64,000 nucleotides of DNA, taken from IMG/VR virus record IMGVR_UViG_3300045988_052780. One strand, 5' to 3'. Source of the DNA: a virus. Within the stretch, counting starts at the first letter, position 1. The number at the start of each line of letters is the position of its first letter. The position numbers and the translations under genes are program-made. The notes beneath the pieces are model-generated. The model was not told the origin of the DNA. It was given only the letters and a program-made list of their open reading frames with translations, and ran no database searches. This document shows positions 13,471 through 48,300 of the stretch, one piece after another.

Positions 13471-13476
13471 ATACCT

Positions 13477-14154: not shown

Positions 14155-14208
14155 TTAGGATATAATATATAAATGCATGTCTCTTAAAAGAGATATTAAC
14201 TTACACGT

Positions 14209-14901: not shown

Positions 14902-14903
14902 TA

Positions 14904-15918: not shown

Positions 15919-15919
15919 T

Positions 15920-29900: not shown

Positions 29901-31704
29901 CTTGTGGGAGCTTGTTAACCCTCCTAAACGTAGTACTGCTCACATTAAGAGAGAACTTCCTAAGAAGCAGACTAAGCCTAAGACTAAAAAGAAATCTAAG
30001 GATGATAGAGTTACCAAGAAGGCAGATGGTGGATTGTTAATTCCTAAATTTCAATCTCCTGCTGCTCCAATACAACGTCGTAACGTTAGGTCCGTAGATG
30101 ATTTAAGTTGGAATAATGATATACTTAATAGTTTAGGACTTAAAAATACTCTAGGTAATATAACTCCTGCTAATGCTAGTAAGTATAATAATATGCAGGG
30201 AGATTATGCTAAATTAGGATTTGGTACCTCTAAACCTGGTGACACATCTCTTACATATGATCCTAATGCAGCTGCTTATCAAACTACATTTAATAATCTT
30301 ACTTCTGTTAATCAAGATACCATGTCTGATTTAGTAAGAAGAGGACGTATTACTGGTAGAGGTGGCAGCTCGGATAAAGGGACACAGTGGACAGCAGATG
30401 GACTTAAGGGAGATCAAACGTTCTTAAGACATTTAGGTACGGCAGCTACTACTAAGAAGGGAATGGATGTATTGAAATCCCTAGTTCCTGATGATATAGA
30501 TGTTATTAAGAATTTAAATCAAGGTATGGTAAATTTTATGCCTAAACTAAAGATGGCTGGTATTACTGATGGTAAAGGATTTAATATTCCTAATACTCCA
30601 ATTGCAACTACAGGGTTATTAGACGAAACAGTTCCTGACGTAGAAGCTACTCCTCAAGATATTAAAACTACAAATAATTCAGGTAGTTATAAATTAAATA
30701 CTAAGGGTAGAGCAGTTACTAATGTACTGTCTGGTTTAAGAACACTACCAGAAGATATTATTGCTTTAGGTAGAATGGTTGGAGGATTAAGAGCTAATCG
30801 TAGAGCCGCAGACAAATATAAAGAAGGATTAAAGCCACTATTAGTAGATACCTATGAGAATGTAGTACCTATTACTGGTAACTATCTTGCTAAAGTATCA
30901 GCTGATAAGCAGGCTTCTAATCTCACCTCGTTAGCTGCTAGACCTAGAACTTCCGATGGTTCTTTACAGTTAGCTGGAGAGTTAGAAGCTGGTAACAGAG
31001 CTGCCCAGATGAGATTCCAAGGAGATATAGCGGATGCAGATATGTTTAATAGAACTAGAACATTAGCACAACAAGAATCTGACGCTGCTAAGGCTAGAAG
31101 AACTGATGTTGCCAATAGAAACAGAGCTTCAATGTTACAAATTAATGCGGCTAAGAAACAAATTGATTCTGCCAGAATTACTAATAACTATGAAAGAGTA
31201 ATTTCTCCTTACTTAGCAGGCATTGAAGGAAGATTTAGACAGAATAAGGCAGCTAGTAAGCAGTTCGATTTAGAACAGGCTAGACTAGCTAGTGCTACTA
31301 AATATAGACCTCAATTACAAGCATTACAAGATAGATATCTTGAAGCTCAAAAGAACAATGATCAAGAGGGAATGAAAGCTGCTATGAATGATTATTATCG
31401 ATTAGTTGATGCCCAGAATCAGGAAATGTTAGCTCAAAGAAAGAAACTAACTCAGATGCCTTGGTTGTTTGAGCAAGTAAATCCAGTTCAAGCTAAAATA
31501 CCTTATAATAAATCTGGAGCTAAAATGAATTCAGCTGACAGAATAATAATGCAAAGAGCAAGAGACTTTAATAAGAGAATGCTAGAAGATAATAAACAAC
31601 TCCATAAGAATATTAACGAATCTAAAAAGCAACAAGCAGATTTAATTAAGCATATGTCTTCTTTAACTGCTGAGCTGATTAAGAAAGGAATGTCATGGAA
31701 ATAA
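26914..31704 (+). CDS. Giant virion protein (1596 aa), a cargo/ejection-protein candidate with a hydrophobic segment and a long C-terminal coiled coil
   Basis: Uninterrupted ORF. It has a Gly/Ala-rich hydrophobic stretch MGALAGDVASLLASFTGVGSVASAGIGAASTAAN...LIPFAKAAKV at about 28615-28900. A lysine-rich segment KKQTKPKTKKKSKDD is present. The C-terminal ~400 aa are Gln/Ala/Arg-rich and heptad-like. The stop overlaps the next start. Confidence 0.5.
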   Translation: MSQVIRKYNSGGKSPEEPELFEWKDVGKYNKSDLISGLYRNVDTYITNNNLSGKKADAFRTATSRLIDGIKNGTVTLNGDGTFNVSDKSLSSTGRFDKNFLGGEKNTDNNANNRAGDYVLDYIKSMNTYKKPTVVTPKKEKFDFNKYFTGEVSRRWYGGNDIDNDNFFNRRSEEDRLKLMADIAGGITPEMLSGYDLEGTIGADEILNRSKRFVEAINNGTLDNNDYNAFAELGGGGLDRWLKPQEEQTATVDVRGDLRKQWEAEARQKGYTDEAIQAYIDNKQKALDEASQKEVDARNTAQEEKLHADAKAAEEERIRQLGASNIGNYNTISTLPEVTPYNFEGVYKSRYDNPWSLSFSAYDLNPDKSTQTVPLHREDGSGYYDSVNIGKTVPGTTAAQRLANDLDYYIRAADLRAQKEGNDSYRLEQLGSGEYVIPDSYNPSTGLIRVYNPKTRQLRWVEALTTQTGKDRVEYLYNIANSPKYKAEGGILKAQQGNVIDWNALNKRANEEMYERNRQADQRYFKSIEETKAKEAKTKAKESGKSEEQATNDSKPHTQWSKADITRMGALAGDVASLLASFTGVGSVASAGIGAASTAANQAADMMEGQSFGQALWNNAGSYVLDAISLIPFAKAAKVPRMIKNVGRFAPLMTTALATYQGLSNGREYLDSWNKAKNGESLTVGDWRNILSSLQLVLGGTAATHRASKAKSHVEAAVTGDEWVKTNQGYRRVSADKMKAIRKAKTLEEQNKILEGTGIVLPEAKTWTGKGKGVAKIPDTDKANMVYDFSKPVTTYSGDLPLQHKFGPGERWLGTAQFPDFHLPGVRDAYNRIIHPQAYKRARGKNQSVAKSSELLALPAPNQVTPGVRGSFGYNATTGDRNRRNEIIRSERLTQQAEAREVQKAKNEALVAWAVNQPFPKQPLAGAARISKEKSYRNIFQPVTEREYNKVWDEAVKNRKDFGYEDVTPRRNIYTAPIPTEITVTPNSITDKNARYLWELVNPPKRSTAHIKRELPKKQTKPKTKKKSKDDRVTKKADGGLLIPKFQSPAAPIQRRNVRSVDDLSWNNDILNSLGLKNTLGNITPANASKYNNMQGDYAKLGFGTSKPGDTSLTYDPNAAAYQTTFNNLTSVNQDTMSDLVRRGRITGRGGSSDKGTQWTADGLKGDQTFLRHLGTAATTKKGMDVLKSLVPDDIDVIKNLNQGMVNFMPKLKMAGITDGKGFNIPNTPIATTGLLDETVPDVEATPQDIKTTNNSGSYKLNTKGRAVTNVLSGLRTLPEDIIALGRMVGGLRANRRAADKYKEGLKPLLVDTYENVVPITGNYLAKVSADKQASNLTSLAARPRTSDGSLQLAGELEAGNRAAQMRFQGDIADADMFNRTRTLAQQESDAAKARRTDVANRNRASMLQINAAKKQIDSARITNNYERVISPYLAGIEGRFRQNKAASKQFDLEQARLASATKYRPQLQALQDRYLEAQKNNDQEGMKAAMNDYYRLVDAQNQEMLAQRKKLTQMPWLFEQVNPVQAKIPYNKSGAKMNSADRIIMQRARDFNKRMLEDNKQLHKNINESKKQQADLIKHMSSLTAELIKKGMSWK

Positions 31705-33515
31705 TTAATAAAGTTAAGAAGCTACAAGGCGGGGGTATTCCCGCCTTCGTTGGCTACACTAATGTTCCACAACCAATGCCTAGTGCTCCATATACAGAAG
31801 GCTCTAATAATGTGGAGAGTACTAAAGATAAGGCAGAAGGTATAGATAAGAGCCTATTACAAGCTCTATACAAAGAAGGCCTCATTAGTGACGTAGATGC
31901 TGTGGCTTCCGAAGTAAGTAATTTGTTTGCTAATAGGAATAATCCGTTAGATCCAAATTCTACTGCAACTGCTTATAGACGTACACTACAGTTAATGGCT
32001 AGACTTAGAGAGGGTAAGGAGCAGTGGAAGATGGCTATAGAAGAATCTAAGAAGAATGGTTCCTATGGTGAAATGGCAGTAAGTACAGATGGTAGATACT
32101 ATGTGATGGGAGAAGATGGTCCGGAATTAAAATCTACTTTAGAAAGAGGTGATAGAGTACTTACTAATGCAGATTTAGCTGAACTGAGAGCTAATAATGT
32201 CCCATTTGCTAATAACATATCTACTACTATAGCTAATGGTGTTAGTATGGAGAGTATTAATAAGACTATTTGGGAACTTATTAGTAAAATTGGAAAGGAT
32301 AGTACTTCAAAAGAATTCTTTAGAACCAAGAAAGGCCAGGATATAAAAGACGGTATTGATGAATTATTAGCTGCTGGAGAAGATGGTGTTTATAAAATCA
32401 CAGAGAAGAATACAGATCAATCTAGGAAAGCTGTAACTGCTTTAAATTATTTAATCTCTGTAATGCCTACTAATGTTAAGGCATTATTAAGAGGTAAAGC
32501 TGCATTAGCCGGATTAGACCCTAATAAAGGTGCTTATAAATTAGTGGCTGATATGGTTGCATCTGGAATTGACAATACTAGTGAAATTGGAATTGATTTT
32601 GATAAAGCTGCTACCACTGGAGCTAATACCGATAGTAATGGTAATAAGAAGACTTTGAGTATGAAACCCATAATGTCTTATTATGCTGGAGAGAATGGAG
32701 TAGAATCCACTTACATAGTAAATCCGGGTCAAGGATATCAAATGCATACTGATGCAGTTATTTATGGGATGCCATTAGACCAGAAAGGTGACGTAGTTCC
32801 GCAAGGGTCATTACAATCTTTATTAAATTCAGGAATTGGAGGTATAGTTGATACTACTTCTATTTCTCTAGGAAATCAGAGAGTAGATTCTTCCAATCTT
32901 GGGCAGGTACTATATGATGGCACACAATTAGCTAGGGCTATACTACCATACACATATGATGCTAATGGTAAGATTGTCCCAGATTTTGAATTAATGCCGG
33001 AATTTATAGAGGCTCAGAAAGAAATCAAGGAGCGAGGCAATAATATAACTGCCGTTGAGCTATCACAGATATTGAATACTCACAATTTAGGAGATTATAT
33101 GTATCAAAATAAAGATGGGGAACTTATATGGAATCCTTCTAAGTTCCGACCATTCCTAATGACTAATGTAATAGCTGGAGGTAGTGATAGCTGGATTGGT
33201 GGAAAGAGTGGAGTAATTGATGTAGATAAAGCAGGGGAAGGGTATATGACTAATATCAGAAGTATGCCTGAAGTAGACCCTGATAATATTAAGAATTTGT
33301 TTAAAGGTAAGTTAGGTATTACTCCAGAAAGTGAACTGTTTAGAACTGTAGCTTACATGCCTATACTTGAAAGTGCTGGTTTAGCTCTTAATGTAGCAGG
33401 TGAAGATCCAACAATTCCTGCGGATTGGGGAGATATGAGAATTATAAAAGGTAAAGCTGCTCAAGCTAAGAAGTTATCAACATTTACTGGAGCTAGTACA
33501 TCTAAATTAGACTAA
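31695..33515 (+). CDS. Virion-module protein (606 aa), hypothetical
   Basis: The ATG overlaps the upstream gene by 10 nt, and the gene is followed 2 nt later by the 2927-aa gene. Confidence 0.5.
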   Translation: MEIINKVKKLQGGGIPAFVGYTNVPQPMPSAPYTEGSNNVESTKDKAEGIDKSLLQALYKEGLISDVDAVASEVSNLFANRNNPLDPNSTATAYRRTLQLMARLREGKEQWKMAIEESKKNGSYGEMAVSTDGRYYVMGEDGPELKSTLERGDRVLTNADLAELRANNVPFANNISTTIANGVSMESINKTIWELISKIGKDSTSKEFFRTKKGQDIKDGIDELLAAGEDGVYKITEKNTDQSRKAVTALNYLISVMPTNVKALLRGKAALAGLDPNKGAYKLVADMVASGIDNTSEIGIDFDKAATTGANTDSNGNKKTLSMKPIMSYYAGENGVESTYIVNPGQGYQMHTDAVIYGMPLDQKGDVVPQGSLQSLLNSGIGGIVDTTSISLGNQRVDSSNLGQVLYDGTQLARAILPYTYDANGKIVPDFELMPEFIEAQKEIKERGNNITAVELSQILNTHNLGDYMYQNKDGELIWNPSKFRPFLMTNVIAGGSDSWIGGKSGVIDVDKAGEGYMTNIRSMPEVDPDNIKNLFKGKLGITPESELFRTVAYMPILESAGLALNVAGEDPTIPADWGDMRIIKGKAAQAKKLSTFTGASTSKLD

Positions 33516-33517: not shown

Positions 33518-36500
33518 ATGAATAACGTAAAGAAACCTAATGATTGGTTCATAGCGCAGATAGATAATCCTTCGTTTACTCCTGGAAATTTTAGAGATGT
33601 AGGATTAACTGCCGACAATACTGGATTATTAGATAGAAATACCTATAAGAATAGTAAATATGTCCAAGATAAATTTAAGGATGATGAAGGTAAGTTTGAT
33701 GAAGTATCCTTTAATAAAGTGTATGATGCTGCCGCTCAAACTTATCAAAAGTTTGCTAATGATGAGTTTGAGGAAAGTATTATGGATGATGCTGATTGGG
33801 ATCCTTATTCTCAGTTAAGACCAGAGGATGGTAAAGTTAGGGACATTAATTTTAATGTAACTAAAGTACTTAATCCAGATAGATTAAAGACTGGTGTATC
33901 TCAAATAGGAAGGACTGACAATAGAGAATGGACTGCCTCTGAACTAGCTCAAACTCAAAAGGTATACGACTATAAAACTGGGAAGTATAAGGAATATACA
34001 CCTAATGATAATATACTATTTGGTAATCCAGTAGGTTTCTTAGCGTCATTAGGTGAACCTTTAGTTCTTGCACAGTGGGATGAAGATGGAGAACATACAG
34101 ATCCATTTACTGGAAGAGTTGTTAAGCATAATAAGGGAGACTTAAAATATAACGATGAAGGTACTTACTACTACGAGACCCTAGGAGGAAGAGAAGCATA
34201 CGGACGTAAATTTAAATCGGCATTTGATTCATTTACTGTAGATGGTTCGGCTGCTAATAAATATGATTTCTTCGATTCTGACGGACTTGATAAATCAGTT
34301 ACTGGTACTGTAATGAAGACAGTAGCTGCAATAGCTCCTCTATTTGTTCCCTACGTTAATACTGTATATGGAGGTGCCATGATTGGTGCTCAATTAATGG
34401 ATATTCTTCCTACAATCTATAAATCCACTATAGGATTAAATCAAGACACTCCTACTGCCAACTTATTACAGGGTATAGGCAGAACATTTAAAGGTTCTAA
34501 ATCTGAATATTCTCAGCAGAACTTAATTTCAACTGAGAACTTCTTTGATTTAGTGACGGATGTAGCTTTGCAGTGGGCACAGCAGAGAACTATATTCCAA
34601 GGTATTCATAAATTACTTGGAACAGAGGCTAAACAAAGAGCTGCTTTAGCCAAAGCAGGAGAAGAAGCTGCCGAAATATTACTTAAGAATCCAGAGAAGT
34701 ATAAGAACGTAGCTGGCAGTGTCATAGAAATGAATCAGCTAAAGGCTGCTAAAGCGTTTGAAACCATTCTTAAGAGAAATAATAGAATGGCAGCAAATAC
34801 TGCACTTGGTTATATGGCAATGATGCAGGGTTTAGAAACCTTTGAGGATGCTATCGGCCAAGGAGCTACTAGAGCTGAAGCAGCTGCTATTGCATGGGGT
34901 GCTGTTGCGGGCATGTATGCAGTTGATAGAACTGGTCTTGGCGAAATATTCTTCCCAGAACTTAAGACTTCCGTACCTGCTTACAGACAAGCAATTAAAG
35001 AGGTTGCAGAGGAAGTTAATAAGGGATTCCAGACATTAGCTAAATCTAATATACCACAACCTAAGAAGCTAGCTAAATTCTTTGATACAGCTAAAAAGAA
35101 GTCTTCCGACTATTGGTCTGATGTTAGAAATCATACTACTGGGTTTGCTCAGAAGATGCTTACTGAAGGTCTAGAGGAAATGTCCGAAGAAGCTGTAGTT
35201 GACTTAGCTAAAGCTACATTTAACTGGGCCCAAGAAATGGGCTTTACTGAGAGCAAGAATAAGTTAAATGCTGGAGAGAATGCATTTGAAAGATACGGAA
35301 TGAGTTTCTTCGGAGGAGCTATTGGTGGCGCTATATTTCATGGTGTAGATGTGGTTAATAATCATAGAGCTACTAATGAGCAAACTAATCAAGAGCTTAT
35401 ATATCTAATCAGAAATGGGCGTACTAATGAACTAATAGAAGAGCTTAATAATCTTAAGAAGAAGGGTAAATTAGGTAACAAGAATCTATCTGCTACTAAG
35501 ACTGAGGATACAAAGGAAGGTACTGTATGGACATCTCCTACTAGTGGAGCAGACAATCAAAATGAAGCAGTGTACAATCTCACTAAGAGCTACTTTCAAC
35601 ATCTAGATGCTGTTATTAACCAAGAAGGTATGGGACTATCCGACGAACAGCTATTAGACAAGATGGTAATGAGTGATGTTAGAATGAAGGCTTTAGCTAG
35701 CATTGAGGTATCCGATGGTCAGAAATTCGGTAAGGCTATTCTTAATGGCTATAATGGTAAAATGCTTCAAGATTTTAATACCCTTACTTCTAAAATAGTT
35801 GAGAAACGCAACGAAATAGCAGATCTGGAGCATAAGACAAATGACACAGACAAGAAAGGGTCAGTTTATCAAGCTGATTTACAAAGACTACAGCAAGAAT
35901 ATTCTGATTTACAACTTCAAAAGCAGAAATTCTTGGACGGTTCATTCTCTGAGTATTATACAGATCAAATGTTGTTTGCTATAGATAATTTAGCCAATCA
36001 TCAGTATTACGCAGCTACATTTAAGGATTTTGCTGAATTTGATACTAAACAGAACTTCCAGGATTTATCAGAAGAACAAATAGAATCTCTGAAACCTAAA
36101 TACGAAGCATATCTGAAGCAAGATAAGATGGAAGCTCTAGATGCTGCTTATGGTATATATAAGAAGGTTAATAAAGAGTTCTCTAACAAGCTTCAAGAAG
36201 GTAGTATCTCAGTTGATGAATATTACAAATTTAGAAAGGAAGTATTCTCAACTATGATTGATTTAAAGGCTACTATAGATAGACTTAATCTGGAGGATGT
36301 TACTGAGCAAGAACTCCAATCTAGATTTGGAGTAGACCGTAACATTGACTGGGTTCTTAATAAGAAGTTTACTAGACAAGTATTTGACAGAAAGGACAAC
36401 GAATCTGATGAAGAGGCTGAAGCTAGGTTACAACAAACTGAACTGTACAACCAAGAAGTGTTAGGAAGAGTTCAAGGAGTAATTCAAATGGCACAAGGCT

Positions 36501-39500
36501 ATGGATTTATGGATGCCGAGACTAAAGACTTACTACTTAGTGTTCTTGGTGATAAAATCTCTAACGAACGAGCAGTTATGACTGTTTTAGGTAATATGTT
36601 CGCTAATGGGATTATTAGTAGAAACGTCGATGCTAGTGGTAACTTACTTCCTGATCCATTGATGGATAAACTAATAGAAACATTAGAGAAAGTTAATGGA
36701 GAGAACTTAGAAGACATAAACAAAGAAATCCATGATGTTATTAATTCTGAAGAGTACAAGAAACAGCTTGTTAATGCAACTTTAGATTACTTTGATGCTA
36801 TAGGAGAATACTATGAGTCTGAAGATGCAGATAATGTTATGAAGTACACTGAAGAGCGTATTAATAACATGGAGAAGATATATCAGGATGCTGCTAAAGA
36901 AATAAATAACGAAGTACTAGCCAACCCGTACAATGCAACAGTATTGCAACTACGTAGTGATGTGCTTAAACTTAAAACTAGTCCAGTGTATGATTATCTT
37001 CAGGATTTTACTAGAACTGTATTCGGAAGCACTTCTAATATTATAGACCTTATAGAGAATGAGCAACGAAGATTTGAGGCAGCTCCTACTATATCTGATT
37101 ATGTTTTAGATGGCAACAAAGAGAAGGAAATAGAAGATGCTATTACAGCAATTAATATGCTTAAATCAGTAATCTATTCTAGTTCTACTGCTGATTTGGA
37201 TATTGATAGGCCATTTGGACATAATGCTCTTATGAACCACTTCTTAGAAACATACTTCCCTAAAGAAGAGAAATATGGAGTTATTAGGGACGATGTAGCA
37301 GCCATGATGAATATAGAATTGGATAAAATTATTAATCAGTTGCTGTTCTTAACTGATTTATCTATAATGAATGGGGTAAATCAGTTTAGTAAACATGCTA
37401 GAACTGGTCAAAAGATATCTAAATTGCTATACGATGTATTAAGAGGTAATGGTAAATATGGATTCCTAAAAGACTTAGAATATAACGGAACCAAGTTATT
37501 TGCAGGTCTAGATGAAATATCTACCCCAACCTTGGACAATATTGACGAAGCAGCTTATGATAATCCAGCAATATCCGTCGAATTGGCTAACTTACAGAAT
37601 AAGCTTTATGATACTTTCCATAAAATAGTATCTGAAAGTGGAGAATCAGTAAGTACAGTACTTAAAGCTATGTTCTCTAATTTAGGGGCTAAATTCAATA
37701 TGTCTAGTTTAGTAAATCAAAATAACACTAGGTTTAGCCCGGAAACGGAATATATAGAAGACTTTGATATTTATATGTGGTTGCATGCCACATTAGCATT
37801 TAAGAAGTCTGATTTTGATTACTATTTAAGAGAGACTCTTGCTGATTCAGAAGCTACCTATGCTCCCTTATTTGCCCAAGAATATGCTGCTTACATGTCT
37901 ACAGCTATGGCAGTTAACCCAGAAGTAATGAATGCTGCCATAGATAATATTGATGTTCCTAAAGGCCAACCCGGTAGTGAATTACTAAAGTACTTCAATA
38001 CTGTAATGGTTAATGGTATCGGAGGTGCTGGTAAAACAGCAGTAATTGCTAAGTTGGTACAGGGAATTGTTACTAAAATTAACCCTAATTCTACTGTGTG
38101 GAAGGTAGGTCCGTCTGAGCAACAAGTTAATAATTTGGTAAGTTCTCTAGGAAGTGATGGAAAGTCTTTTACTGTAGAAGGTTTAATGAGACATGTCTTA
38201 GGTGATGAGACTTATGGTGAACTTAGTAAGGACATTAATAGCTCTAATACTGAATCTAAATTATATGACTTGGTAGAATTTAATGAACTTAAGCAAGGAT
38301 ACACTGTAGCAGTTGCTAAGTCTGATATAGAATATAGTGATAATGCTACTCCTAGATTGCTGTTTATTGATGAAGCTACTTGGGTTAATAGCGTTTATAT
38401 GCAATTCTTATCTGATTGGGCATCCAAGAATGGTGTTACAATAATACTATTAGGGGATTTAAATCAGAATGGATATGAGAATGTAGAAACTAGTATATAC
38501 AATGTTAAACCAACTGAAGCATTAACGGTTAGAACTCCTAAACTGGATATTAGCTTACGTATTACTAATGTTCAGAAAGACGATAATAATAAGCAGGTTA
38601 ATGCAATTCTTAGTAGGATCAACTTTAACAAGGATAATGTGACCGCTGATAATGATGCAGAAGTTAGAGATAGAATATTCAATGAAATTACTAGTAATTT
38701 AATTCTGAAACATTATCAAGACGATGACAATCCACTAAATGGAGAGAAGATAGTAAATGAAATTTCAGAGGAAGATATTAAGGCATTATTGGAAGCTGAT
38801 GGTGAAATAGGTTATGTATATGATAATGAAAACTCTCCTACATATCAGTTAATTCAGAGAATGAATGATAGTAGAATCAAGGTATACACTCCTAAATCTG
38901 TACAAGGCTCAGAAGCTGCTCACTTCATTATTGATGTAGACTTTGCTAAATACGATTCTACTGACTGGGCAGACCTTATTAATTTTGCTAAATCCTTCTA
39001 TACTATGATGTCTCGTTCTAAAGAAGGAACTTACATTATTAATAATGGATTATCTGCATATGTAAAAGAGAAGAATCTTATTAAGGAAGATAGAACTTCT
39101 GTAACTCCTAGTCAGGAACGTATTATTAACACCTTCAAAGAAATCAGAATGGCTGCTTTGGATTCAGAATTGGAAGGGTATACTCCTTCTCCAATAAATT
39201 CTGAAGAGACATCTCAATCTCCTGAACCAGCTGCTAAAGCTGCTCCTTATACACCTAAAAGTCCTTCCAAACCTAAAGGAGATAATCCTATAGAGAATGA
39301 GTTATTAGGTAACTTGGATGGAAAGAAGACTACTGTATTAGATTCAGAAATAGAGGGTGTTATGTCTGGAATTAGGGCTTATGGATGGTATATGAGATAT
39401 GGTATGTTAGAGAATGAGGACGGAACATTTGATAGAGTAGTTAAAGATGATATTATAGATGATTTAAACGTCTTTACTAAAAATGGAATTCATTATACTG

Positions 39501-42301
39501 CTAATCAATTGATTACTCCTAAATCATTATTGGTGGATATTAGAAACTACCTAACATTTGGTGAGAAGTTTGATGAAGATTTCTTACAGAGACTGTCTGA
39601 TAGTGGTAATGCATATTTAGCTAAGTTAGGATTAGATGTATGGAATAATGGAAGTTTCTATCTTGAAGTTCGTAAAGACGATACTAGTACCACTGGAACA
39701 GATATAGCTAGAGACAAACAAGGTTATGATAAGACTAAAGTAGAGTCTACTGCATTTAATATTGTTTACAGAGTCAGTATAGATGGAGGTAAGGATATTC
39801 AGTTTACTATGGGTAAACTTACTAATCCAGACACTTGGCAGAAATGGGATAAAGCTCATGGTAACAAGTTAGATGCTGCTATATCTAAGTATAGGAAGTG
39901 GTATAAGAACATGCAAGAATGGTCTAATTCTAATCCAACATCTTCTAAATACTTTAAAATCAATAAATCTGACATTACATTCTCTAGGGCAACTAGACTA
40001 AAAGAGGTACCAGGTCAAACTTGGAATCTTAATGAGTTACAAGAAGCCTTTCCTAATGCTCTAATAAGTCCTATGTATGGATATACTGGACAGGGTGGTG
40101 TAGCTATGATCGATAAATCAGTCAGAGGTAAAGGTATAGTATTTGCAACTACTAATAAGCATCTCAAAATAGACGGGGAGAAAGTTACTGAATCAAATCT
40201 AGCAGATATGTATATCAAAATGCAGAAGAAGAGAGCAAGAGCATTTGATGAAGCTAAATCAAGGGGTCTTTCTAATGAAGAGGCAAATGCAGAAGTTGCA
40301 GATAGAGTACCGCCAATCATTAGAGCTATAGTAGCTACCCCTAATGGTTCATTTATAAATGACTACTTTACATTATCATTCAGTGATTTAACTAGTACTG
40401 ACGATGATGGCAAGAGTAAACTTGATATACAGCAGGTTAAGGACTATATAGGTACATATGGAAGTAATACTACAGCGGCTAGAATGTTAGTAGCATTGTG
40501 GAATTATCGAGCCGGACTTAACAACTTCTTAGATGCTTATAAGACATATATGTCTACTAATAATCTGAGTGAAGTAAGGGGACAGACTGAAGTTGATAAG
40601 TTCAATGGACTGCTAGACCAATCTGTAGTTAATGGGGCTAAAAGAGTTCCTTGGAATCCTTCTACTTATAATGGATTTATGTTTAGACTTACTTATGCTG
40701 ATGCTATTAAGGCTAATGCTCCAGGTATGGTAGTTAGACCTATAAATCTTAGTGAGAATGAATGGAAAGAATTCAATGCAGGCAGTAAAGTATCTAGAAA
40801 ACTTACTTATGGAGTATATATAGATCCAGCAGTTGCTAAGGCTCAATATACTATATTAAATGAAATATTTGATGTTTTAGGTAAATACATTTCACTTCCT
40901 AAGGATACTAATTTCACAATTAGAACAGAAGGAAGAAATATGGATAATATCCTAGAGCAACTTATATCTGATAATGGAGAGATAGAATTCAGTGATGGAG
41001 TAAGAACTGTCAAACATGCAGCCTCAGCTTTAGGAAATATGGGAGGATCTTTTAAAGTTGTTAGTTTGCTATCCTCTATCTATAAGATGTACACTAAAGG
41101 TTATAAAGCAGGTGATGCTTATTCATTTACTGCAAAAGGACCGGATGGTAAACCTATAGAAACTAGACTAGAAGCAACTAATGTTCGCATAGGTGAAGCT
41201 GTCAGAGATGCAGGTAGGACCAGTGCTTTTTCTGTACTTAATAATATGTTCAATGTTATATTACATGGCACTCCAACTATTAAGGAAGGTGCTCCTACTA
41301 CAACATATGCTCCATTTATAGATGGAATATTCTATACTCCAAGATTTCAGACTTCTCATGACAGTCAACCCTCAGATTTCTATCCCACTAGAAATAACTT
41401 AGATCAGTTCCATATAGATGTAGCTATAGAAAGTCCTAATTTCGAAATTACTATAGACCCTACTGGTTTAAAAGAAGTAGAATTTAAGGATGATATATTA
41501 CATGCTAAGAGAGACGAATTTAACTCCAGAATGAATTTGTCAACTATGGGAGCTCTGTCTAATGTAAGTGGATATGAATCCTTACAGGATTTAGCTGACA
41601 GAGCTAAATCTAGATATGAGACTGAAGGGGATGCTGCTATTAATGATATCATTAAAGAGTATAGTAGCTCAGTAGCTGTCAAGCTTTCTGATGCAGTTAA
41701 TAATAGACAATTAAAGATGAATAATGACACTGTATTAAGTATTTATACTACAGTTCTTGACACTGGACTATTAACTATAAATAGTTATTCTACCCTGTTA
41801 GATGAAATAAATAAGAAGAGTCCCTCTGTACTACCTAAGAAAGTAGATGGTTCTATTGATAATTCTGCAATTCAGAATGTTGAATATAATGGTAGTAATC
41901 TAGAGGAATTTACAGTAACTTTGCAGGGAGGACAAACAATAAAAGGTTCTATTCTCGATGGTAAAGTAGAAATTGCAGATACAACTATGTATGAAATTCC
42001 ATTTGATCCAACTAGAGAACAGAAGTTAAAGATATTCGCAGATACACTTAACGATTTTGATAATCTTAGGGAATCTGAAATTGCTGACTTAATTAACACA
42101 TTAATGTCTCTATCATCAGTAACTCCAGAGCAGGCTCAGGCTATATTGGATAAAGCCAAACTAGTTGACAGCCATTTTGAAGGATTATTGACTGATGAGC
42201 AGTTAGACAATGATGATTTAATTGACGTGCAAGAATACATATCTTCTTTAGCTTCCAATAAGAACATTATTGATAGTCAAGGATGTAAATTTAATATCTA
42301 A
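33518..42301 (+). CDS. Giant virion/cargo protein (2927 aa) containing an SF1B (RecD/Pif1/Dda-like) helicase core
   Basis: Uninterrupted 8.8-kb ORF. Ordered helicase motifs lie at about residues 1495-1850. They are Walker A NGIGGAGKTAVIAKL (nt ~38015), Walker B/motif II RLLFIDEATWV (nt ~38355), motif III IILLGDLNQNG (nt ~38450), motif V VYTPKSVQGSEAAHFIIDVD (nt ~38890) and motif VI FYTMMSRSKEGTYII (nt ~39000). Their order and spacing are typical of SF1 helicases. Confidence 0.6.
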   Translation: MNNVKKPNDWFIAQIDNPSFTPGNFRDVGLTADNTGLLDRNTYKNSKYVQDKFKDDEGKFDEVSFNKVYDAAAQTYQKFANDEFEESIMDDADWDPYSQLRPEDGKVRDINFNVTKVLNPDRLKTGVSQIGRTDNREWTASELAQTQKVYDYKTGKYKEYTPNDNILFGNPVGFLASLGEPLVLAQWDEDGEHTDPFTGRVVKHNKGDLKYNDEGTYYYETLGGREAYGRKFKSAFDSFTVDGSAANKYDFFDSDGLDKSVTGTVMKTVAAIAPLFVPYVNTVYGGAMIGAQLMDILPTIYKSTIGLNQDTPTANLLQGIGRTFKGSKSEYSQQNLISTENFFDLVTDVALQWAQQRTIFQGIHKLLGTEAKQRAALAKAGEEAAEILLKNPEKYKNVAGSVIEMNQLKAAKAFETILKRNNRMAANTALGYMAMMQGLETFEDAIGQGATRAEAAAIAWGAVAGMYAVDRTGLGEIFFPELKTSVPAYRQAIKEVAEEVNKGFQTLAKSNIPQPKKLAKFFDTAKKKSSDYWSDVRNHTTGFAQKMLTEGLEEMSEEAVVDLAKATFNWAQEMGFTESKNKLNAGENAFERYGMSFFGGAIGGAIFHGVDVVNNHRATNEQTNQELIYLIRNGRTNELIEELNNLKKKGKLGNKNLSATKTEDTKEGTVWTSPTSGADNQNEAVYNLTKSYFQHLDAVINQEGMGLSDEQLLDKMVMSDVRMKALASIEVSDGQKFGKAILNGYNGKMLQDFNTLTSKIVEKRNEIADLEHKTNDTDKKGSVYQADLQRLQQEYSDLQLQKQKFLDGSFSEYYTDQMLFAIDNLANHQYYAATFKDFAEFDTKQNFQDLSEEQIESLKPKYEAYLKQDKMEALDAAYGIYKKVNKEFSNKLQEGSISVDEYYKFRKEVFSTMIDLKATIDRLNLEDVTEQELQSRFGVDRNIDWVLNKKFTRQVFDRKDNESDEEAEARLQQTELYNQEVLGRVQGVIQMAQGYGFMDAETKDLLLSVLGDKISNERAVMTVLGNMFANGIISRNVDASGNLLPDPLMDKLIETLEKVNGENLEDINKEIHDVINSEEYKKQLVNATLDYFDAIGEYYESEDADNVMKYTEERINNMEKIYQDAAKEINNEVLANPYNATVLQLRSDVLKLKTSPVYDYLQDFTRTVFGSTSNIIDLIENEQRRFEAAPTISDYVLDGNKEKEIEDAITAINMLKSVIYSSSTADLDIDRPFGHNALMNHFLETYFPKEEKYGVIRDDVAAMMNIELDKIINQLLFLTDLSIMNGVNQFSKHARTGQKISKLLYDVLRGNGKYGFLKDLEYNGTKLFAGLDEISTPTLDNIDEAAYDNPAISVELANLQNKLYDTFHKIVSESGESVSTVLKAMFSNLGAKFNMSSLVNQNNTRFSPETEYIEDFDIYMWLHATLAFKKSDFDYYLRETLADSEATYAPLFAQEYAAYMSTAMAVNPEVMNAAIDNIDVPKGQPGSELLKYFNTVMVNGIGGAGKTAVIAKLVQGIVTKINPNSTVWKVGPSEQQVNNLVSSLGSDGKSFTVEGLMRHVLGDETYGELSKDINSSNTESKLYDLVEFNELKQGYTVAVAKSDIEYSDNATPRLLFIDEATWVNSVYMQFLSDWASKNGVTIILLGDLNQNGYENVETSIYNVKPTEALTVRTPKLDISLRITNVQKDDNNKQVNAILSRINFNKDNVTADNDAEVRDRIFNEITSNLILKHYQDDDNPLNGEKIVNEISEEDIKALLEADGEIGYVYDNENSPTYQLIQRMNDSRIKVYTPKSVQGSEAAHFIIDVDFAKYDSTDWADLINFAKSFYTMMSRSKEGTYIINNGLSAYVKEKNLIKEDRTSVTPSQERIINTFKEIRMAALDSELEGYTPSPINSEETSQSPEPAAKAAPYTPKSPSKPKGDNPIENELLGNLDGKKTTVLDSEIEGVMSGIRAYGWYMRYGMLENEDGTFDRVVKDDIIDDLNVFTKNGIHYTANQLITPKSLLVDIRNYLTFGEKFDEDFLQRLSDSGNAYLAKLGLDVWNNGSFYLEVRKDDTSTTGTDIARDKQGYDKTKVESTAFNIVYRVSIDGGKDIQFTMGKLTNPDTWQKWDKAHGNKLDAAISKYRKWYKNMQEWSNSNPTSSKYFKINKSDITFSRATRLKEVPGQTWNLNELQEAFPNALISPMYGYTGQGGVAMIDKSVRGKGIVFATTNKHLKIDGEKVTESNLADMYIKMQKKRARAFDEAKSRGLSNEEANAEVADRVPPIIRAIVATPNGSFINDYFTLSFSDLTSTDDDGKSKLDIQQVKDYIGTYGSNTTAARMLVALWNYRAGLNNFLDAYKTYMSTNNLSEVRGQTEVDKFNGLLDQSVVNGAKRVPWNPSTYNGFMFRLTYADAIKANAPGMVVRPINLSENEWKEFNAGSKVSRKLTYGVYIDPAVAKAQYTILNEIFDVLGKYISLPKDTNFTIRTEGRNMDNILEQLISDNGEIEFSDGVRTVKHAASALGNMGGSFKVVSLLSSIYKMYTKGYKAGDAYSFTAKGPDGKPIETRLEATNVRIGEAVRDAGRTSAFSVLNNMFNVILHGTPTIKEGAPTTTYAPFIDGIFYTPRFQTSHDSQPSDFYPTRNNLDQFHIDVAIESPNFEITIDPTGLKEVEFKDDILHAKRDEFNSRMNLSTMGALSNVSGYESLQDLADRAKSRYETEGDAAINDIIKEYSSSVAVKLSDAVNNRQLKMNNDTVLSIYTTVLDTGLLTINSYSTLLDEINKKSPSVLPKKVDGSIDNSAIQNVEYNGSNLEEFTVTLQGGQTIKGSILDGKVEIADTTMYEIPFDPTREQKLKIFADTLNDFDNLRESEIADLINTLMSLSSVTPEQAQAILDKAKLVDSHFEGLLTDEQLDNDDLIDVQEYISSLASNKNIIDSQGCKFNI

Positions 42302-42307: not shown

Positions 42308-45300
42308 ATGGCATGTACTAACTTTGACATAGGGCAACACAGACTTGATGCTGAGGTTGCTCTAAGAAGTACAGTATTAAAGTTTAGGAAAGAGCCAGTA
42401 ATATCTACTGCTAATTTCATAGACGACTTCTACAACAGTTTGAAGAATACTGGACTATTTAACCTGGAGAGCGAGGCAGAATATGTCTCGCTTTCTGAGG
42501 TTCTAGAAGATTTTGTTAAAACATCCAGAAGATTAACAGATGCACAGAAGGAACAATTATTAGCTGAATATGCTGTACCGTTAAGTTCCAAATTCAGTAT
42601 TAATCCGGAAACCTCTACAGTAGAGGAAGTTGACAAGAGTCTTGTCATTAAAGACGAACCTGAGGACATTCAAGTAATTGAAGAACCATTGGAGAGAAGA
42701 GTTGCAACTCCATCCATTAGTGATATTTACGGTTCTGCTTCTGTAGTTAAGGAGTATATGCTGAATCAGTTTAGGTATAATATTATAGAAGCATCATTAG
42801 TTAATTTTGCCGACGGTAGACTTATTAAGAGCAATGATGATTTAAATGTTTATATTGCTAAATACAAGAATACCTTATTTAAGAAATTAGTCGACTATAT
42901 TAAATTAGCTAATTCTGAAGAAGGTATAGAAACTGATGCATCTATACTAGATACTATTTACCTAGATGGAATTCCTAATGTAGAGAATATGCAGAAGGTT
43001 CTGGATGCCGCTTCTAGTATATTTGAAAACATATCTAAATCTGCGTTAGACAGTGCATTCGTATCTAAGAAGAGAAACATAGAAGGATTCTATAAGAATC
43101 AGATGTTAGTGGATGGATTCAATGCATGGGCTGTTCTATCTAACGGTAACTTCGATACTATTCTTAAAAGCTTATTCGGAAAGAATATGGAAATTAGGAA
43201 TAGGGGATATGTAGGAATAGAACTACCTGTGAGCACTAATAAATACCAATTTAGATCTGGTTCTAATATGGTTAAAACATGGAGAACTAATGAGAATGTA
43301 GATGCATTATCTGAAATAGGTAATGTGTCTAGATTACTTATTGAACAAACTCCTGTAATTAATCATGTTACTGGAGAGCAGATAGGTGACAAGTATTTAA
43401 ATTTGAAACAATTCGTTCACTCTTTTAGCAAGATTAAAGACGAATACAACTTTATGTTCTTTGGGGAGAGACTACAGGATTTAGTTTTAAATTTACATTC
43501 CGCCCCTAATTATTACTTAGGAGAAATTCTTAAGGAAATATTAAATAGTGATACTAGGTCTAAGGTATTCCAAGTAAACGATCTTAACGTATTTAAATCT
43601 ATCTATGATAAGTTCTATAACAAAGATAAATTCAACTCTTTATATAATATTGCAAATAGAGACTATCTTACTTCTAAAGCTATCACTACTTACGATTTGT
43701 TAGATTCTATATCTGGAGTTGTAGATAGAACTAACAATGCCAGATATGTAGAATATGCTCTTAATAGTGATACTAGAGATTTGGATAGTTCTGAAATTAA
43801 GCAATCTAATGTAAATAGACGTAAAATACAGAGAGAGAATGATATTGATATTGCTAACGAACTTATGGCAGATAGAACTGGCCTATTAAATAGGTGGGGA
43901 ATATCTGTTAGTAACGCTACTACTGGCGACGTCTCTTTTACTTTACCATATAAAGGAGAAAAGGTTACTGTAATTTATAACAGCAATGCAGTTAGTAGTA
44001 AAGGACAAAGAAAGCTTGAATTATCAAACTCTGATATCGTTAAATTTGGAAGGCTAAATACTATATTAGAAGAACCTTCATTTACTAAGTTAAAAGCTAT
44101 ATATGAAGAGAACAATCCACAGGTACTTACTGATGGAGAAAGATTATATGTATCTTTAATAGAATTTATAGATGACTTTGCTAATACAGGATTCTTAAGA
44201 GGTAATGTAGATTTACTAGCTGCATTTAGAAATGTAAATGAAGCTAATAATCTTGATTATCTTGATAAATTAGTAGCTGTTGCAAGCAGTTCTGCATTTG
44301 TTAATACAGTATATGATGGATATGAAAATAATCCTGAGAATTTATCATTACGTTCGTATATAGAAACTCTGAACTATTACAATGAGAAGTTAGGAGATAA
44401 TAATGAAAGGTTCTACTACGATAAAGCCTCAAACTCATTAAAGGCTATTAGACCTAATTTAATTAATATACTTAATGATATTGTAGCAGCTGAACAGGTA
44501 GTAACTGGAGAAATATATAAGTCAGTTATTAAGAATGCTGAAGGTAATAATATACCTAACAGCAGGATTGCTAACTTAGCTGGACTGACTAGGAGCTACG
44601 TTAAAAAGCATATACTTGATAATCCTAGTTCTGCTTTAAAGAATACGCTATTTGGACGAAATCCTAATATGCTAATGGGAACTTCCATAAAAACTGATGT
44701 AGTTAGTAGAAATGGAATAAAGAAGAGTGCTACTAAGTTCTCGGTTGCAGAAATAGGATATTCTTCGTTAGTATATGACTTCTATGGAAACTTATTAAGA
44801 CCAAAGAATGGCAATGCACCTGTAACTATCAATGTACAACCTACTGTATATTCCGATAAGGGAACATTTGTAATGTGGAAGCTTGGTGTAGATAAGATAG
44901 ATGTACTTGATGAGAATGGTAAGCCATTACTTATTAATTTACTTACTTCACCTACTAAAGACATTATTAGTGCTATCAAAGGAACTGTAGGAACTTACTA
45001 TAAGGAAGTATTCAATAATGTATTGGGTGACTATAAAGAAGTATACAGACAATCTTTAGAGACATACTTACAAAGATTGCAGGCTATTAATCCTGAGGCT
45101 GCAAACAGAATACTATCTAAACAGAGTAAAGTAGATGCTGAGAATGCTAAAATAGCTAAACATAATGAATCTCTAGATTCAGAAAGAAACAGACTGTTAC
45201 AAGCATTAGATGCAGCACAAGCAGCTGGTGATTTTATGGATGCTAGTAGCATAGTAGATGCTTTAGACTCTCTTGATATTAAAGAACCAGTTTCATTAGT

Positions 45301-48300
45301 AGATGTACTTGACTACCAAGACTTTACTAATTTATTAGCAGTTACTACATCAGGTGAGTACACTAATATGTCTTATGCTGCTGGAGTCCCTAATATTGAT
45401 AACGTTCACACTAATACAGGAGGGTCATTTGAACTCAATGGCAAAACTAAGAAAGGCCTGATTCCTAATAAACTTTTAAACTTCCTTGCTACAGAAATGT
45501 ATGCTAAAGAGGATGTGTTTAACAAAGCTATGCTTAGAGAACGTAAGAAGTTTGTTAAGGACATGATTGACAATAATATGTCATTCCCTTTAGTATATGC
45601 CAACGGACGTAGTAATACAGTTCTTAGAAAGGCTGCGGATAAGTTATTAGGAGCTGATAAAAGACTATGGGTAAATGAGAATACTCAAGAACTTATATTA
45701 GCTAAACAGGGTAATACTAATATTACTAGACTATCTGATTTAGATAGTAATTGGTTAAGAGATGATGTAGAAATTACTCTAAATCCTCTAATTGAAAGGT
45801 ACTTTGTAGCTGATTTCTTAACATCAGAGAACCTTAGACTAGTAACTACTGGTAGTAGCATTGCACATCCAAATAAAGCTAAATATGGTAGTTTAGATCC
45901 TGACTCATTTAACGGAATAGAAATGGAACACTCTTCTAGAGAACTTGCTGAGTTAAAACGTAATGTGATTGTACCAGCTACATTACAGTATCTACATCAG
46001 AATAGTTTGACTGGAGTACCACCCTGGTATAGAATAGCTGTAATGAGTGATGTCGGAGCTCCTGTATATAACTTTAAAGGTGAAATTGCAGAAGTGGATG
46101 CACATGACGGTTCTGCATGGTGTAATCCTATTATGTCTTATTTGGAGAACTTATCATTACAAGATTCATCTGTAGGAGAAGATAAGAAACCTATTGGACA
46201 TGATTATAATGGAAGATATGGTACAGCAGCTTTATTAAAGTTTGCTACCTTCTCTGCTTACAATGAAAGGCTTCGTCAATCATTAACATCAGACATTAAA
46301 TTATATAATTTATTCAAGAAGATGTCTGATTTTAAATGGAGTGAATCAACAGCTGATTGGGATGTTCCTGCTAATGTAGACCTTACTGTAAATTTATTTG
46401 GTCAGCCAATGACTCTAAGAGATGTCACTGGAGGTGATAGAATATTTTACAGAGACGGTAACAATCATTATGAGATACTAGGACTAGACAAAGTAGGAAA
46501 TGGACTGTATAATATTAGTAAGCAGTTGGTAGATATAAATGGAAATCCAATACAAGCAGTAGGTGCCGCTAATGTATTAATTGATACTAACGTTCCAATT
46601 AATTCTTTATTTGAATTACATGCTGCTTTAGGAGGAGTTTATAGTGAATCACTTAGAGATGGAGAACTTGCATATAGCGATGCTTCATTAGCCGTAACTG
46701 CTACTTATGTTAATAATATAGGACAGTATAAAGCCAATGGAGACATACCTACTCAACGCAATACCAACCAGCCACTCAAATATAAAATGATTGCTTACTT
46801 AGTTAATAAGTCTGCAATCAAAGTGGGAGCTCAAAATATAAATCCAGATAGCTCTTGGTATGATGATTCTCCATTAATGACAATGCACTTTAATACTGAT
46901 GGCTTAGGTATGCAGATGGATGCTGACCACGTAGTTACCGACCCAGAACATCAGTCAACAATGACCGAGTTCTCTCAGGTAATTTCAGCTCTTGAATCTA
47001 TGGGATTTACTCATGATATGGCTAAGAATGCATATAAAAGCTTAGGTAAAGTTGCATTAGCTTCTATAGGTAATATTAAAGAAGCTGTATATGTTCTTAC
47101 TGGAATAAAACCTACTGATAATCCTGATGTTAAATCAGACTTGTATGAGATATTTGGTAAAGCTATTATTAAGGAATTAAATAAGAACAGCGATGAATTA
47201 GGAACTGCCAAAACTATCATTCAGAAAGCTAAGGAGGAGTTTGCTTTAGATAGGAAACGTAGAACTTCACATGGAGCTGACGCTTATAAGATTCCTTATA
47301 GTGATCCTTCTATATTTGCTAAGGCTTTATCTACATTTACGTCCAACATCAATAAGACTGCTATTAAAAGAAAGTTCCCAGGTATGGGTGCTGTTATGGC
47401 TCCTGGATATAATATCATACAGGTACATAGAATTGGAGGGCAGAATTATAGATATGACGATTTATATCGAATTGCAGCTGATGAAGGAATATCAGTAGAT
47501 GAATACTTACAAAGAGAGCAGGCTAAAATTGAATCTGAACCAGCTAATTCTATTGATAGATTACTACCTGGAGATAGAATTAAAATACCTATCCAAGAAG
47601 TGGCTAGTGTAGTTGCCAAGATTAATAGTGACGCTACTAGAAATAAAAAGTTTGCCGAATTAGAAGTTGGCAAGTATACTAGACTAGTAGATCAAGCTAA
47701 TAGAGGAGACGGTGAAGGGGTTGAACTATCTAAGGCTCAAGATAACCTTAATAAGGCACTGTCTAAGTTAGAGAGACTAAATAGAGATATAGCATTAACT
47801 GTACCTCAGTTCTTGGAAGATAATGGATGGAAACTCGAAGGAGAGTATATGTTAGTATATGTAAACGATTATGATTCTTATAATTTCGTCAAGAAGAATT
47901 TCTCTACATTTTATACTGACATTACTAGACCTACAGACTTGAAACCTGCCGAAATATACTGGGATGATGCAACTGGCAAGAGACATAGTATATTCGATAT
48001 GCCAGCAATACAAGCATCGTTTACTGAACGTAAGAAGTATAAGAAGCTTCCTAAAGAAATAGGAGCTAAATTACAGGCTGATGTTCAGAATACATTCATG
48101 TTGCTAGATAAAGGGTATATGACTGCTACTGAAGATATGTTATTGGAATATAATCAAGATCCAGTAGCATTTAGCAAGAAATACGTTCCGGAAGGTAGAT
48201 ACTTAATGGAACTGCCTAATGGTAATATAGCTATTCCAATTCAAAATCTAGTTAATAATCCTGCTGAATTAGTAATTAGTAAGTTATATGTTAATCAATT

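Follow-up and report, generated by a model that had tools for sequence, protein, structure and literature searches.

An SF1B helicase domain in a giant protein encoded next to the virion RNA polymerase gene of a deep-branching crAss-like phage

A reading frame of 2927 aa (33518..42301; all feature coordinates refer to the + strand) was found in the viral genome segment analyzed here (IMG/VR record IMGVR_UViG_3300045988_052780, 64,000 nucleotides, hereafter the window). The original prediction recognized five helicase motifs within this frame, regarded their chance occurrence as negligible, and labeled the product a virion or cargo protein. This raises the question whether the giant protein indeed contains a helicase and, if so, at which step of infection it would act. 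Based on the ORF list and its translation, the protein comprises an N-terminal module, an SF1B helicase, and a C-terminal module; full-length homologues measure 2500-3500 aa.

Translation confirmed that all five motifs are present in the order given. Their conservation was assessed in an alignment of 123 representatives, trimmed to the query columns, whose mutual identity is only about 25-57%. In motif I, or Walker A (GIGGAGKT, aa 1500-1507; 38015..38038), residues G1503, G1505, and K1506 are invariant (123/123), and position 1507 is either T or S. Motif Ia (VGPSEQQVNNL; 38105..38137) corresponds to the family consensus APTxxQxxNL. D1618 and E1619 of motif II, or Walker B (LLFIDEAT, aa 1614-1621; 38357..38380), are likewise found in 123/123 sequences, as is Q1650 of motif III (LLGDLNQNG, aa 1644-1652; 38447..38473), which also retains D1647 (121/123) and G1646 (119/123). 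A motif IV-like element (RTPKLDISLR; 38531..38560) contributes the invariant R1681 (123/123). Motif V (TPKSVQGSEAAHFII, aa 1791-1805; 38888..38932) shows slight variation at Q1796 (119/123), G1797 (122/123), and E1799 (121/123), and motif VI (YTMMSRSKEGTYII, aa 1828-1841; 38999..39040), which includes the arginine finger, preserves T1829 and R1833 throughout (123/123). The residues singled out beforehand as diagnostic, i.e. the Lys of GKT, the DE of motif II, the Q of motif V, and the R of motif VI, are thus retained by the homologues. About 46 residues upstream of the P-loop, the candidate Q-motif APLFAQEYA (37862..37888) contains a nearly invariant pair, P1450/Q1454, present in 113 of the 123 sequences with gaps in the others; this P/Q pair may represent the Q-motif.

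Three Pfam models matched the domain above their cut-offs: AAA_30, a RecD-like P-loop model (6.5e-8, 33 bits, cut-off 27), Viral_helicase1 (4.3e-6, 27.1 bits, cut-off 21), and AAA_19 (8.2e-6, 26.5 bits, cut-off 25.1). The same three models exceeded their cut-offs in 20-22 of 23 diverse relatives. UvrD_C_2 reached 12.3 bits in the giant protein, below its cut-off of 27.4, and matched 11 of the 23 relatives with E-values down to 2.5e-6. A search of PDB with the single sequence gave nothing useful; the family profile matched Upf1 at 1.3e-11 with both RecA domains covered, as well as Sen1, IGHMBP2, RecD, and Dda. Tandem RecA-like domains were found, as anticipated, and the fold is that of SF1B, with RecD2, Dda, and Pif1 as the closest structural relatives. 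Motifs, Pfam, profile, and fold agree with the proposed RecD/Pif1/Dda-like identity, and the Pfam scores above gathering thresholds together with the Upf1 match bear out the view that chance is a negligible explanation. We conclude that the domain is almost certainly an SF1B helicase. The interval 37990-39060 predicted earlier corresponds to the two-RecA core; the folded domain is wider (aa 1431-1884; about 37808..39169) and consists of an N-terminal helical bundle, RecA 1A, a long helical hairpin, and RecA 2A.

Compared with RecD2 of Deinococcus radiodurans, T4 Dda, RecD, and Pif1, the domain has motifs I, Ia, II, III, IV, V, and VI in the same order and with the same chemistry, but it is only 12-16% identical to them and differs by its long two-helix insertion and its N-terminal helical bundle. 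It also sits in the middle of a 2927-aa protein, whereas the known enzymes are free or, in one case, a subunit of RecBCD. Since Upf1-like members outscore RecD with sequence profiles, the assignment stops at SF1B and does not extend to a subfamily. SF1B helicases are ATP-driven translocases that move 5'-to-3' on single-stranded nucleic acid. Judged from its residues, the domain is very probably enzymatically active, with predicted ATPase and helicase activity. Inactivated enzyme folds occur in many giant proteins of phages, and a degenerate pseudo-helicase retained for structural support alone would have precedent in this respect; the invariance of the catalytic residues of motifs I, II, III, and VI, and the near invariance of those of motif V, across 123 highly diverged sequences make it very hard to believe here.

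The modules on either side of the helicase are less informative. For the N-terminal module (aa 1-1430; 33518..37807), Pfam and PHROGs returned no recognizable domain. A hydropathy scan revealed moderately hydrophobic Gly-rich segments in it (aa 166-184, 265-283, and 595-613), and no clear transmembrane helix exceeded the standard hydropathy threshold in the giant protein. In some relatives (L009 and L014) this module is encoded by a gene of its own. The C-terminal module (aa 1950-2927; 39365..42298) is conserved family-wide, displays no recognizable fold, and always remains with the helicase when the giant gene is split. PHROGs had no match for the giant protein or the helicase domain, NCBIfam had none for the five large proteins of the block, and Pfam detected SF1/P-loop models only, i.e. 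no methylase, peptidase, ADP-ribosyltransferase, or other polyvalent-type effector in the 2927 aa. A DLDID at aa 1226 was considered as a polymerase motif and rejected, as it is not conserved in the relatives P0002 or P0007. In one further relative, P0034, inspection by eye alone suggests an additional PD-(D/E)XK-like motif close to the C-terminus.

The genome belongs to a deep-branching crAss-like phage and encodes crAss muzzle, ring, BACON, and PD-(D/E)XK proteins. The muzzle gene (19441..24222; Pfam crAss_MUZ, 1.9e-22) identifies the tail/cargo end of the block of structural genes. It is followed by two genes, for products of 1596 and 606 aa (26914..33515), in the positions of the crAss001 cargo genes C1 and C2. 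The 1596-aa product contains a Gly-rich hydrophobic segment and was compared with crAss001 gp45 by hydropathy; gene order here is kept in L008, L009, L014, and L015, although the match of both genes to C1 and C2 is positional only. In the window and in these four loci, the order is a C1-like gene, a gene of about 610-650 aa, the giant gene, and the polymerase gene, and in each of the seven loci examined the giant gene closes the structural/cargo block, directly upstream of a gene for a virion-type RNA polymerase. Intergenic gaps are 2 and 6 nt, that between the giant ORF and the polymerase gene being 6 nt.

The polymerase gene itself is interrupted. Alignment with the uninterrupted genes of L009, L013, and L015 placed the end of exon 1 (42308..49081) within the catalytic motif, at WLQGSDY, and exon 2 (50153..53104) begins with DIDKAYVMGYDF in a reading frame that extends upstream of an ATG at 50174. 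Between them, an insert of about 1.07 kb (49079..50152, boundaries approximate) splits the DYDID motif. It harbors a LAGLIDADG endonuclease ORF (49410..50111; LAGLIDADG_2, 7.6e-26), and two matches to the Rfam model Intron_gpI (28.5 and 22.1 bits) fell short of the gathering score; the insert is probably a group I intron. Because it splits the motif, a regular expression for DxDxD found no match in the polymerase, and the motif was recovered by alignment with a relative. The motif LQGSDYDIDKAY of this downstream gene matches SGSDFDVDKLY of crAss001 gp50. A search of PDB sequences with a polymerase exon gave no match.

Within these fast-evolving giant proteins, conservation is highest in the helicase. 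Single-sequence phmmer with the helicase reached 240 clusters (50% identity), whereas the C-terminal module retrieved only 7 of 150 listed family proteins. The relatives came from an exhaustive HMMER search; a word-indexed homologue search yielded one fragment with the single sequence and none with the alignment, and scans of IMG/VR returned near-identical copies of the window phage and no distant relatives. When two family members were compared by tblastn with 50,697 GenBank phages, only MT835470 and MT835492 matched, and GenBank phage records thus represent the lineage by just these two unannotated contigs. The capsid protein of the window is 98.9% identical to that of MT835470, but the cargo genes are 45-71% identical. 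The domain is absent from crAss001 (gp44-gp50) and from the ICTV Crassvirales exemplars. It is not general to crAss-like phages but belongs to one deep-branching lineage, mostly TAG-recoded, in which most members read TAG as an amino acid. The giant-protein family is large and unannotated, and in the literature searched we found no paper that describes such a helicase domain in crAss-like giant proteins, in agreement with the novelty claimed for it.

Whether the giant protein is virion cargo has to be judged from its neighbors. Its gene lies in the late block between the muzzle, C1-like, and C2-like genes and the virion RNA polymerase gene, and this position suggests that the protein is probably packaged. 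In crAss001 (Bayfield et al. 2023, PMC10172136), the giant proteins gp47, gp49, and gp50 are likewise encoded behind those for the muzzle, C1, and C2, and gp50 was detected in virions by mass spectrometry (PMC10172136). The giant gene of the window occupies the position of gp47, and the gene downstream of it shares the catalytic motif context of gp50. On the other hand, virion presence was demonstrated for crAss001 only, and gp47, gp49, and gp50 show no detectable sequence similarity to the giant protein of the window and contain no P-loop or helicase domain. When the N-terminal, middle, helicase, and C-terminal parts were each used as profiles, none significantly matched crAss001 gp44-gp50, and BLASTP gave no match either (the collected gp47 homologues are all >90% identical). 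Equivalence with gp47 is therefore positional only. The cargo label of the original prediction accordingly holds as far as gene position is concerned, and finds no counterpart in sequence homology to the crAss001 cargo proteins. A further argument against packaging and ejection is that a protein of about 330 kDa whose two-RecA domain is compact could pass the tail channel only in unfolded form.

Our best explanation, to which we assign an even chance, is a packaged and ejected helicase that supplies template to the polymerase. The giant protein would be made late in infection and packed into the capsid together with the polymerase; on ejection it would enter the cell before the DNA or along with it. 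The helicase would then load on the entering genome end, unwind it or track along it, and hand single-stranded template to the polymerase. One point against this scheme is that an SF1B enzyme loads on a single-stranded 5' tail, which the genome end would have to provide. Poxvirus virions provide a general parallel, as their transcription ATPases/helicases NPH-I, NPH-II, and A18 work with a packaged polymerase; these are SF2 enzymes and separate proteins. The phi14:2 polymerase gp66 does not transcribe double-stranded M13 DNA and transcribes the native phi14:2 genome only weakly, but single-stranded or denatured DNA is an efficient template; QDE-1, a structural relative of gp66, needs the helicase QDE-3 and RPA (bioRxiv 10.1101/2020.03.07.982082). 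In this Neurospora system, as proposed here, a two-barrel polymerase depends on a helicase for its template, although QDE-3 is a RecQ-type SF2 helicase and a separate eukaryotic protein, while the window encodes an SF1B domain within a giant protein. A role specifically as transcription accessory, in partnership with the polymerase, appears plausible at somewhat less than even odds. More speculatively, the crAss-type two-barrel virion RNA polymerase of this lineage could strictly depend on the ejected helicase to open its template, the pair being a phage counterpart of QDE-3/QDE-1; the helicase and the 1000-aa C-terminal module would then make up a packaged initiation factor of a new kind, and crAss001-like lineages would solve the problem otherwise. 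As crAss001 and the ICTV exemplars lack the domain, a packaged helicase is not generally required by crAss-type polymerases.

An ejected helicase might instead act against host defense, tracking the incoming genome and stripping, outrunning, or blocking restriction or other nucleic-acid-targeting systems. Packaged giant multidomain proteins with helicases have already been described among the 'polyvalent proteins', such as phage P1 DarB with its SF2 helicase, a packaged methylase-helicase protecting DNA in cis, and some plasmid giants with UvrD-like SF1 helicases (Iyer et al. 2017, PMC5512222). Like DarB, the giant protein of the window is a very large multidomain phage protein with a helicase; its gene lies among late genes, and the protein would be expected to accompany the DNA. 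The very fast evolution of the cargo block relative to the capsid is as expected under an arms race, and the PD-(D/E)XK-like motif that P0034 appears by eye to carry would also fit. However, DarB joins an adenine methylase to an SF2 SWI2/SNF2 ATPase, whereas here the helicase is SF1B and Pfam revealed no methylase or other effector typical of polyvalent proteins, and, in contrast to DarB, the gene is linked to that of a virion RNA polymerase. The strong purifying selection on the helicase core and its constant linkage to the polymerase gene fit a housekeeping step of infection better than a variable counter-defense, and we regard the anti-defense role as unlikely.

Two other functions were weighed against template supply. 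If the ejected proteins formed a trans-envelope conduit, the helicase could pull in the remaining DNA with ATP. The giant protein is large enough for an ejectosome, has moderately hydrophobic Gly-rich segments in its N-terminal third, and contains a bona fide translocase fold; RNA polymerases serve for genome internalization in T7. Yet SF1B enzymes move on single strands, known double-stranded DNA pumps belong to other classes (FtsK, terminase, SWI2/SNF2), and no transmembrane helix stands out at the standard threshold. Cargo proteins have been proposed to exit first and form a tunnel (Bayfield et al., PMC10172136, PMC10136315), but entry of crAss001 works without such a domain, and a motor of this kind seems quite improbable. 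The protein could also stay out of the virion altogether, as an intracellular helicase for replication, recombination, or late transcription whose location at the late operon's end is coincidental. Its lack of detected homology to verified cargo proteins would agree with this, as would the replication and repair functions of RecD2, Dda, and Pif1 and the PD-(D/E)XK nuclease domain in the next large gene of the block. A replication helicase enclosed in 2900 aa, with flanks of 1400 and 1000 aa, would be unusual, however; the gene is co-oriented and packed between cargo-position genes and a polymerase that must be packaged, and the nucleotide-metabolism genes at the right end of the window, with which the replication module probably begins, are on the opposite strand. 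We consider a non-virion protein a poor candidate.

[quoted passage not shown] The one crAss-type virion polymerase characterized is poor on double-stranded DNA in vitro, which raises the question of how early transcription begins once the genome has been injected; a strictly conserved, apparently active helicase encoded beside the polymerase is a concrete and clonable candidate. The helicase is also the first enzymatic domain that can be assigned in this large lineage of about 240 clusters, for which it doubles as a sensitive sequence marker. If the giant protein is packaged, SF1B helicases would join the few enzymes that accompany phage DNA into the cell.

The ORF at 33518..42301 (+) encodes a giant protein of 2927 aa, whose central domain is an SF1B helicase. 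All five helicase motifs quoted in the original prediction were found in this product in the order claimed, i.e. motif I (GIGGAGKT, aa 1500-1507), motif II (LLFIDEAT, aa 1614-1621), motif III (LLGDLNQNG, aa 1644-1652), motif V (TPKSVQGSEAAHFII, aa 1791-1805), and motif VI (YTMMSRSKEGTYII, aa 1828-1841). A motif Ia (VGPSEQQVNNL) was found as well, along with a motif IV-like element (RTPKLDISLR); some 46 residues ahead of the P-loop, a Pro/Gln pair that is invariant (APLFAQE) may act as a Q-motif. Three Pfam models matched above their gathering scores (AAA_30, 6.5e-8; Viral_helicase1, 4.3e-6; AAA_19, 8.2e-6), and UvrD_C_2 matched weakly over motifs V-VI. Together with the order of the motifs, the three models bear out that the set is not a product of chance. 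The interval first assigned to the helicase (37990-39060) covers the catalytic core; the folded domain is wider (aa 1431-1884, ~37808-39169 on the + strand).

For structure prediction, the domain was aligned with 22 diverse relatives (22-55% identity to the window). The predicted structure (mean pLDDT 89, pTM 0.88) retrieved only SF1 helicases as top Foldseek matches in the PDB, with E-values from 6e-10 downwards: alphavirus nsP2 helicase, RecD, Sen1, nidovirus nsp13, Dna2, Dda, RecD2, and Upf1. The sequence profile of the same alignment matched yeast and human Upf1 over both RecA domains (1.3e-11 to 6e-10), followed by Sen1, IGHMBP2, RecD, MERS nsp13, and Dda. A RecA-like tandem fold is thus present by both profile and structure search, and the assignment to SF1B holds; structure and sequence rank the RecD/Dda/Pif1 and Upf1-like subgroups of SF1B differently for this domain.

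When 1.84 billion cluster representatives were scanned exhaustively with HMMER, 240 family proteins reached E <= 0.001, and 157 reached E <= 1e-10. Nearly all are 2500-3500 aa long and match at residues ~1400-2100. Since generic cellular helicases were absent from the matches, the family forms a discrete clade. The members that were looked up all came from ENA or Logan metagenome assemblies, and none had a functional name, an NCBI record, or a UniRef record. Conservation was counted over 123 full-length representatives, whose identity to the window across the domain is only ~25-57%. Invariant in all of them were G1503, G1505, and K1506 (motif I), D1618 and E1619 (motif II), Q1650 (motif III), R1681 (motif IV-like), and T1829 and R1833 (motif VI); in motif V, Q1796 was kept in 119, G1797 in 122, and E1799 in 121. 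The residues named beforehand as decisive, i.e. the Lys of GKT, the motif II DE, and the Q and R of motifs V and VI, are therefore retained in 119-123 of the 123 homologues. Their retention despite such low overall identity strongly implies an active NTPase, and the domain is very probably catalytically competent. The SF1B motor is intact and under strong purifying selection.

The giant consists of three modules. The N-terminal module (~1430 aa) is moderately hydrophobic in a few Gly-rich segments and shows no domain recognisable by Pfam. The helicase, which is the slowest-evolving part, is followed by a Pro/Ser/Lys-rich linker and a conserved C-terminal module of ~980 aa. With the C-terminal third as a single-sequence query, only 7 of the 150 listed family proteins were recovered; an iterated profile detected the C-terminal module in 76 proteins. 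In one subclade (MT835492, P0093, and P0099) the gene is split into two ORFs of ~1540-1560 aa and ~1556-1603 aa, which overlap by a few codons (7187-16464 in MT835492; 5340-14812 in L014, the locus of P0099). The split point lies ~100 residues upstream of the helicase domain, so the helicase always stays with the C-terminal module. A relative of 3578 aa (P0034; L015, 7107-17843) has an extra C-terminal stretch (residues ~3170-3260) that, judged by eye, looks like a RecB/Cas4-type PD-(D/E)XK nuclease motif (D...DxK...QxxxY); if the motif is real, P0034 would be a helicase-nuclease fusion. Two antisense ORFs inside the giant gene (40015-40320, 101 aa, and 41404-41730, 108 aa, both on the - strand) most likely occur by chance, the sequence being AT-rich.

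Six nucleotides past the giant gene begins the ORF 42308..49081, whose end reads ...HVSHWQTWLQGSDY; the frame entering ORF 50174..53104 reads DIDKAYVMGYDF... The gene runs through this site without a break in three related loci (MT835492, L013, and L015), where its sequence is (W/F)LQG(A/S)DYDIDK(A/S)Y. D[FY]DxD is the catalytic motif of crAss-type polymerases (bioRxiv 10.1101/2020.03.07.982082), and the motif context of crAss001 gp50, LSGSDFDVDKLYIM, is matched by the window's gene, which by these motifs encodes the virion-type RNA polymerase. In the window it is split exactly inside the catalytic DYDID motif by an insert of ~1.07 kb (49079-50152), comprising a LAGLIDADG_2 endonuclease ORF (49410..50111, 7.6e-26) flanked by two Rfam group I intron matches, both sub-threshold (28.5 and 22.1 bits). 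The interruption in MT835470 and L014 falls in this very codon, and that in L012 lies a few codons upstream; MT835492, L013, and L015 have none. In 7/7 loci (the window, MT835470, MT835492, and L012-L015), the helicase gene is the immediate upstream neighbour of the polymerase gene. In five of these (the window, MT835470, MT835492, L014, and L015), genes of ~1450-1650 aa and ~610-650 aa precede the giant. The window's 1596-aa protein has a Gly-rich hydrophobic segment similar to that of crAss001 C1 (gp45). The helicase has a constant setting: a giant protein of three modules, whose gene adjoins that of the virion polymerase where the structural block ends.

By its predicted genes, the window is clearly crAss-like. 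Among its products are crAss tail ring protein 1 (ring protein 2 is matched only weakly), a crAss muzzle protein (1.9e-22), and, near the tail fibre genes, a four-BACON-repeat protein typical of crAssphage (1153-2859, 3.1e-23). Between the muzzle gene and the 1596-aa and 606-aa genes, which occupy cargo positions, lie a retropepsin-like aspartyl protease (Asp_protease_2, 6.3e-8), which could process cargo proteins, and a DUF192 protein (2.7e-25), together at 25390-26462. A DUF192 protein occupies the same position in the distant relative L012. At the block end, a 1526-aa protein (55529-60109) has an assigned domain only near its N-terminus, a PD-(D/E)XK nuclease domain (PDDEXK_1, residues 133-278, 3.6e-5). 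Nucleotide-metabolism genes lie on the opposite strand, and a HAD domain of 'Swiss Army Knife' RNA repair proteins is fused with a YqeY-like domain at 61212-62144 (-).

The major capsid protein (9180-10601) is only ~21-26% identical to ICTV Crassvirales exemplars; it shares 98.9% identity with MT835470 and 61% with MT835492, both unannotated records from human faeces. The lineage is deep-branching and unclassified. TAG is a sense codon in MT835492 and L012-L015: in L012, L013, and L015, where the giant gene is undivided, it contains 57-93 in-frame TAG codons, and the 24.7 kb of the MT835492 locus, read with the standard code, have no ORF of at least 300 aa. The standard code applies in the window phage and MT835470. 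Against the 98.9% of the capsid, identity between these two over 26914-49081 falls to 45% for the 1596-aa gene, 71% for the 606-aa gene, 63% for the giant, and 69% for polymerase exon 1. This sharp mosaic boundary suggests module exchange or very fast evolution of ejected proteins.

Mass spectrometry of crAss001 virions detected gp45, gp46, gp47, gp49, and gp50, of which gp47, gp49, and gp50 are termed RNA-polymerase-associated cargo proteins (PMC10172136). A helicase is mentioned neither there nor in a 2023 review. No profile built from any part of the giant family matched crAss001 gp44-gp50, and none of these crAss001 proteins has a helicase-type P-loop. In Yutin et al. (2021, PMC7886860), an SF1 helicase appears only as a stand-alone gene of the replication block, and recent work on the epsilon and zeta groups does not mention such a domain within giant proteins. 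A tblastn search of 50,697 GenBank phage records with two family members matched only the unannotated contigs MT835470 and MT835492, and full-text literature searches gave nothing relevant on helicases in Crassvirales or crAss-like phages. The arrangement thus appears undescribed, as had been supposed. The helicase-bearing giant is not general in crAss-like phages; it is the hallmark of a single large lineage that is unclassified and mostly TAG-recoded. Phage cargo proteins that carry enzymes are a known theme, to which this giant adds a new fusion and a new genomic partner for a known class of helicase.

We infer that the giant is ejected after packaging in the virion, and such packaging seems reasonably likely. 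A co-delivered helicase could create a single-stranded template at the entering genome end. The polymerase phi14:2 gp66 efficiently transcribes single-stranded or denatured DNA, does not transcribe double-stranded M13 DNA, and transcribes its own native genome weakly; its structural relative QDE-1 needs the QDE-3 helicase and RPA (bioRxiv 10.1101/2020.03.07.982082). Given this template preference and the requirement of QDE-1, template opening is the most economical role, though it can be proposed only tentatively.

The nearest published concept is the 'polyvalent protein', typified by P1 DarB, a methylase-SF2 helicase fusion that is packaged; some plasmid giants carry UvrD-like SF1 helicases (PMC5512222). 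The giant shares large size and late-gene context with these proteins, but has none of their defining domain dyads. A DarB-like anti-defence role would fit the cargo block having diverged very fast compared with the capsid. Alternatively, the giant could be a DNA-pulling motor or act purely inside the cell. That the domain is a dead scaffold is contradicted by the conservation across the 123 representatives. The finding makes it directly testable how virion polymerases of the crAss type gain access to double-stranded DNA.
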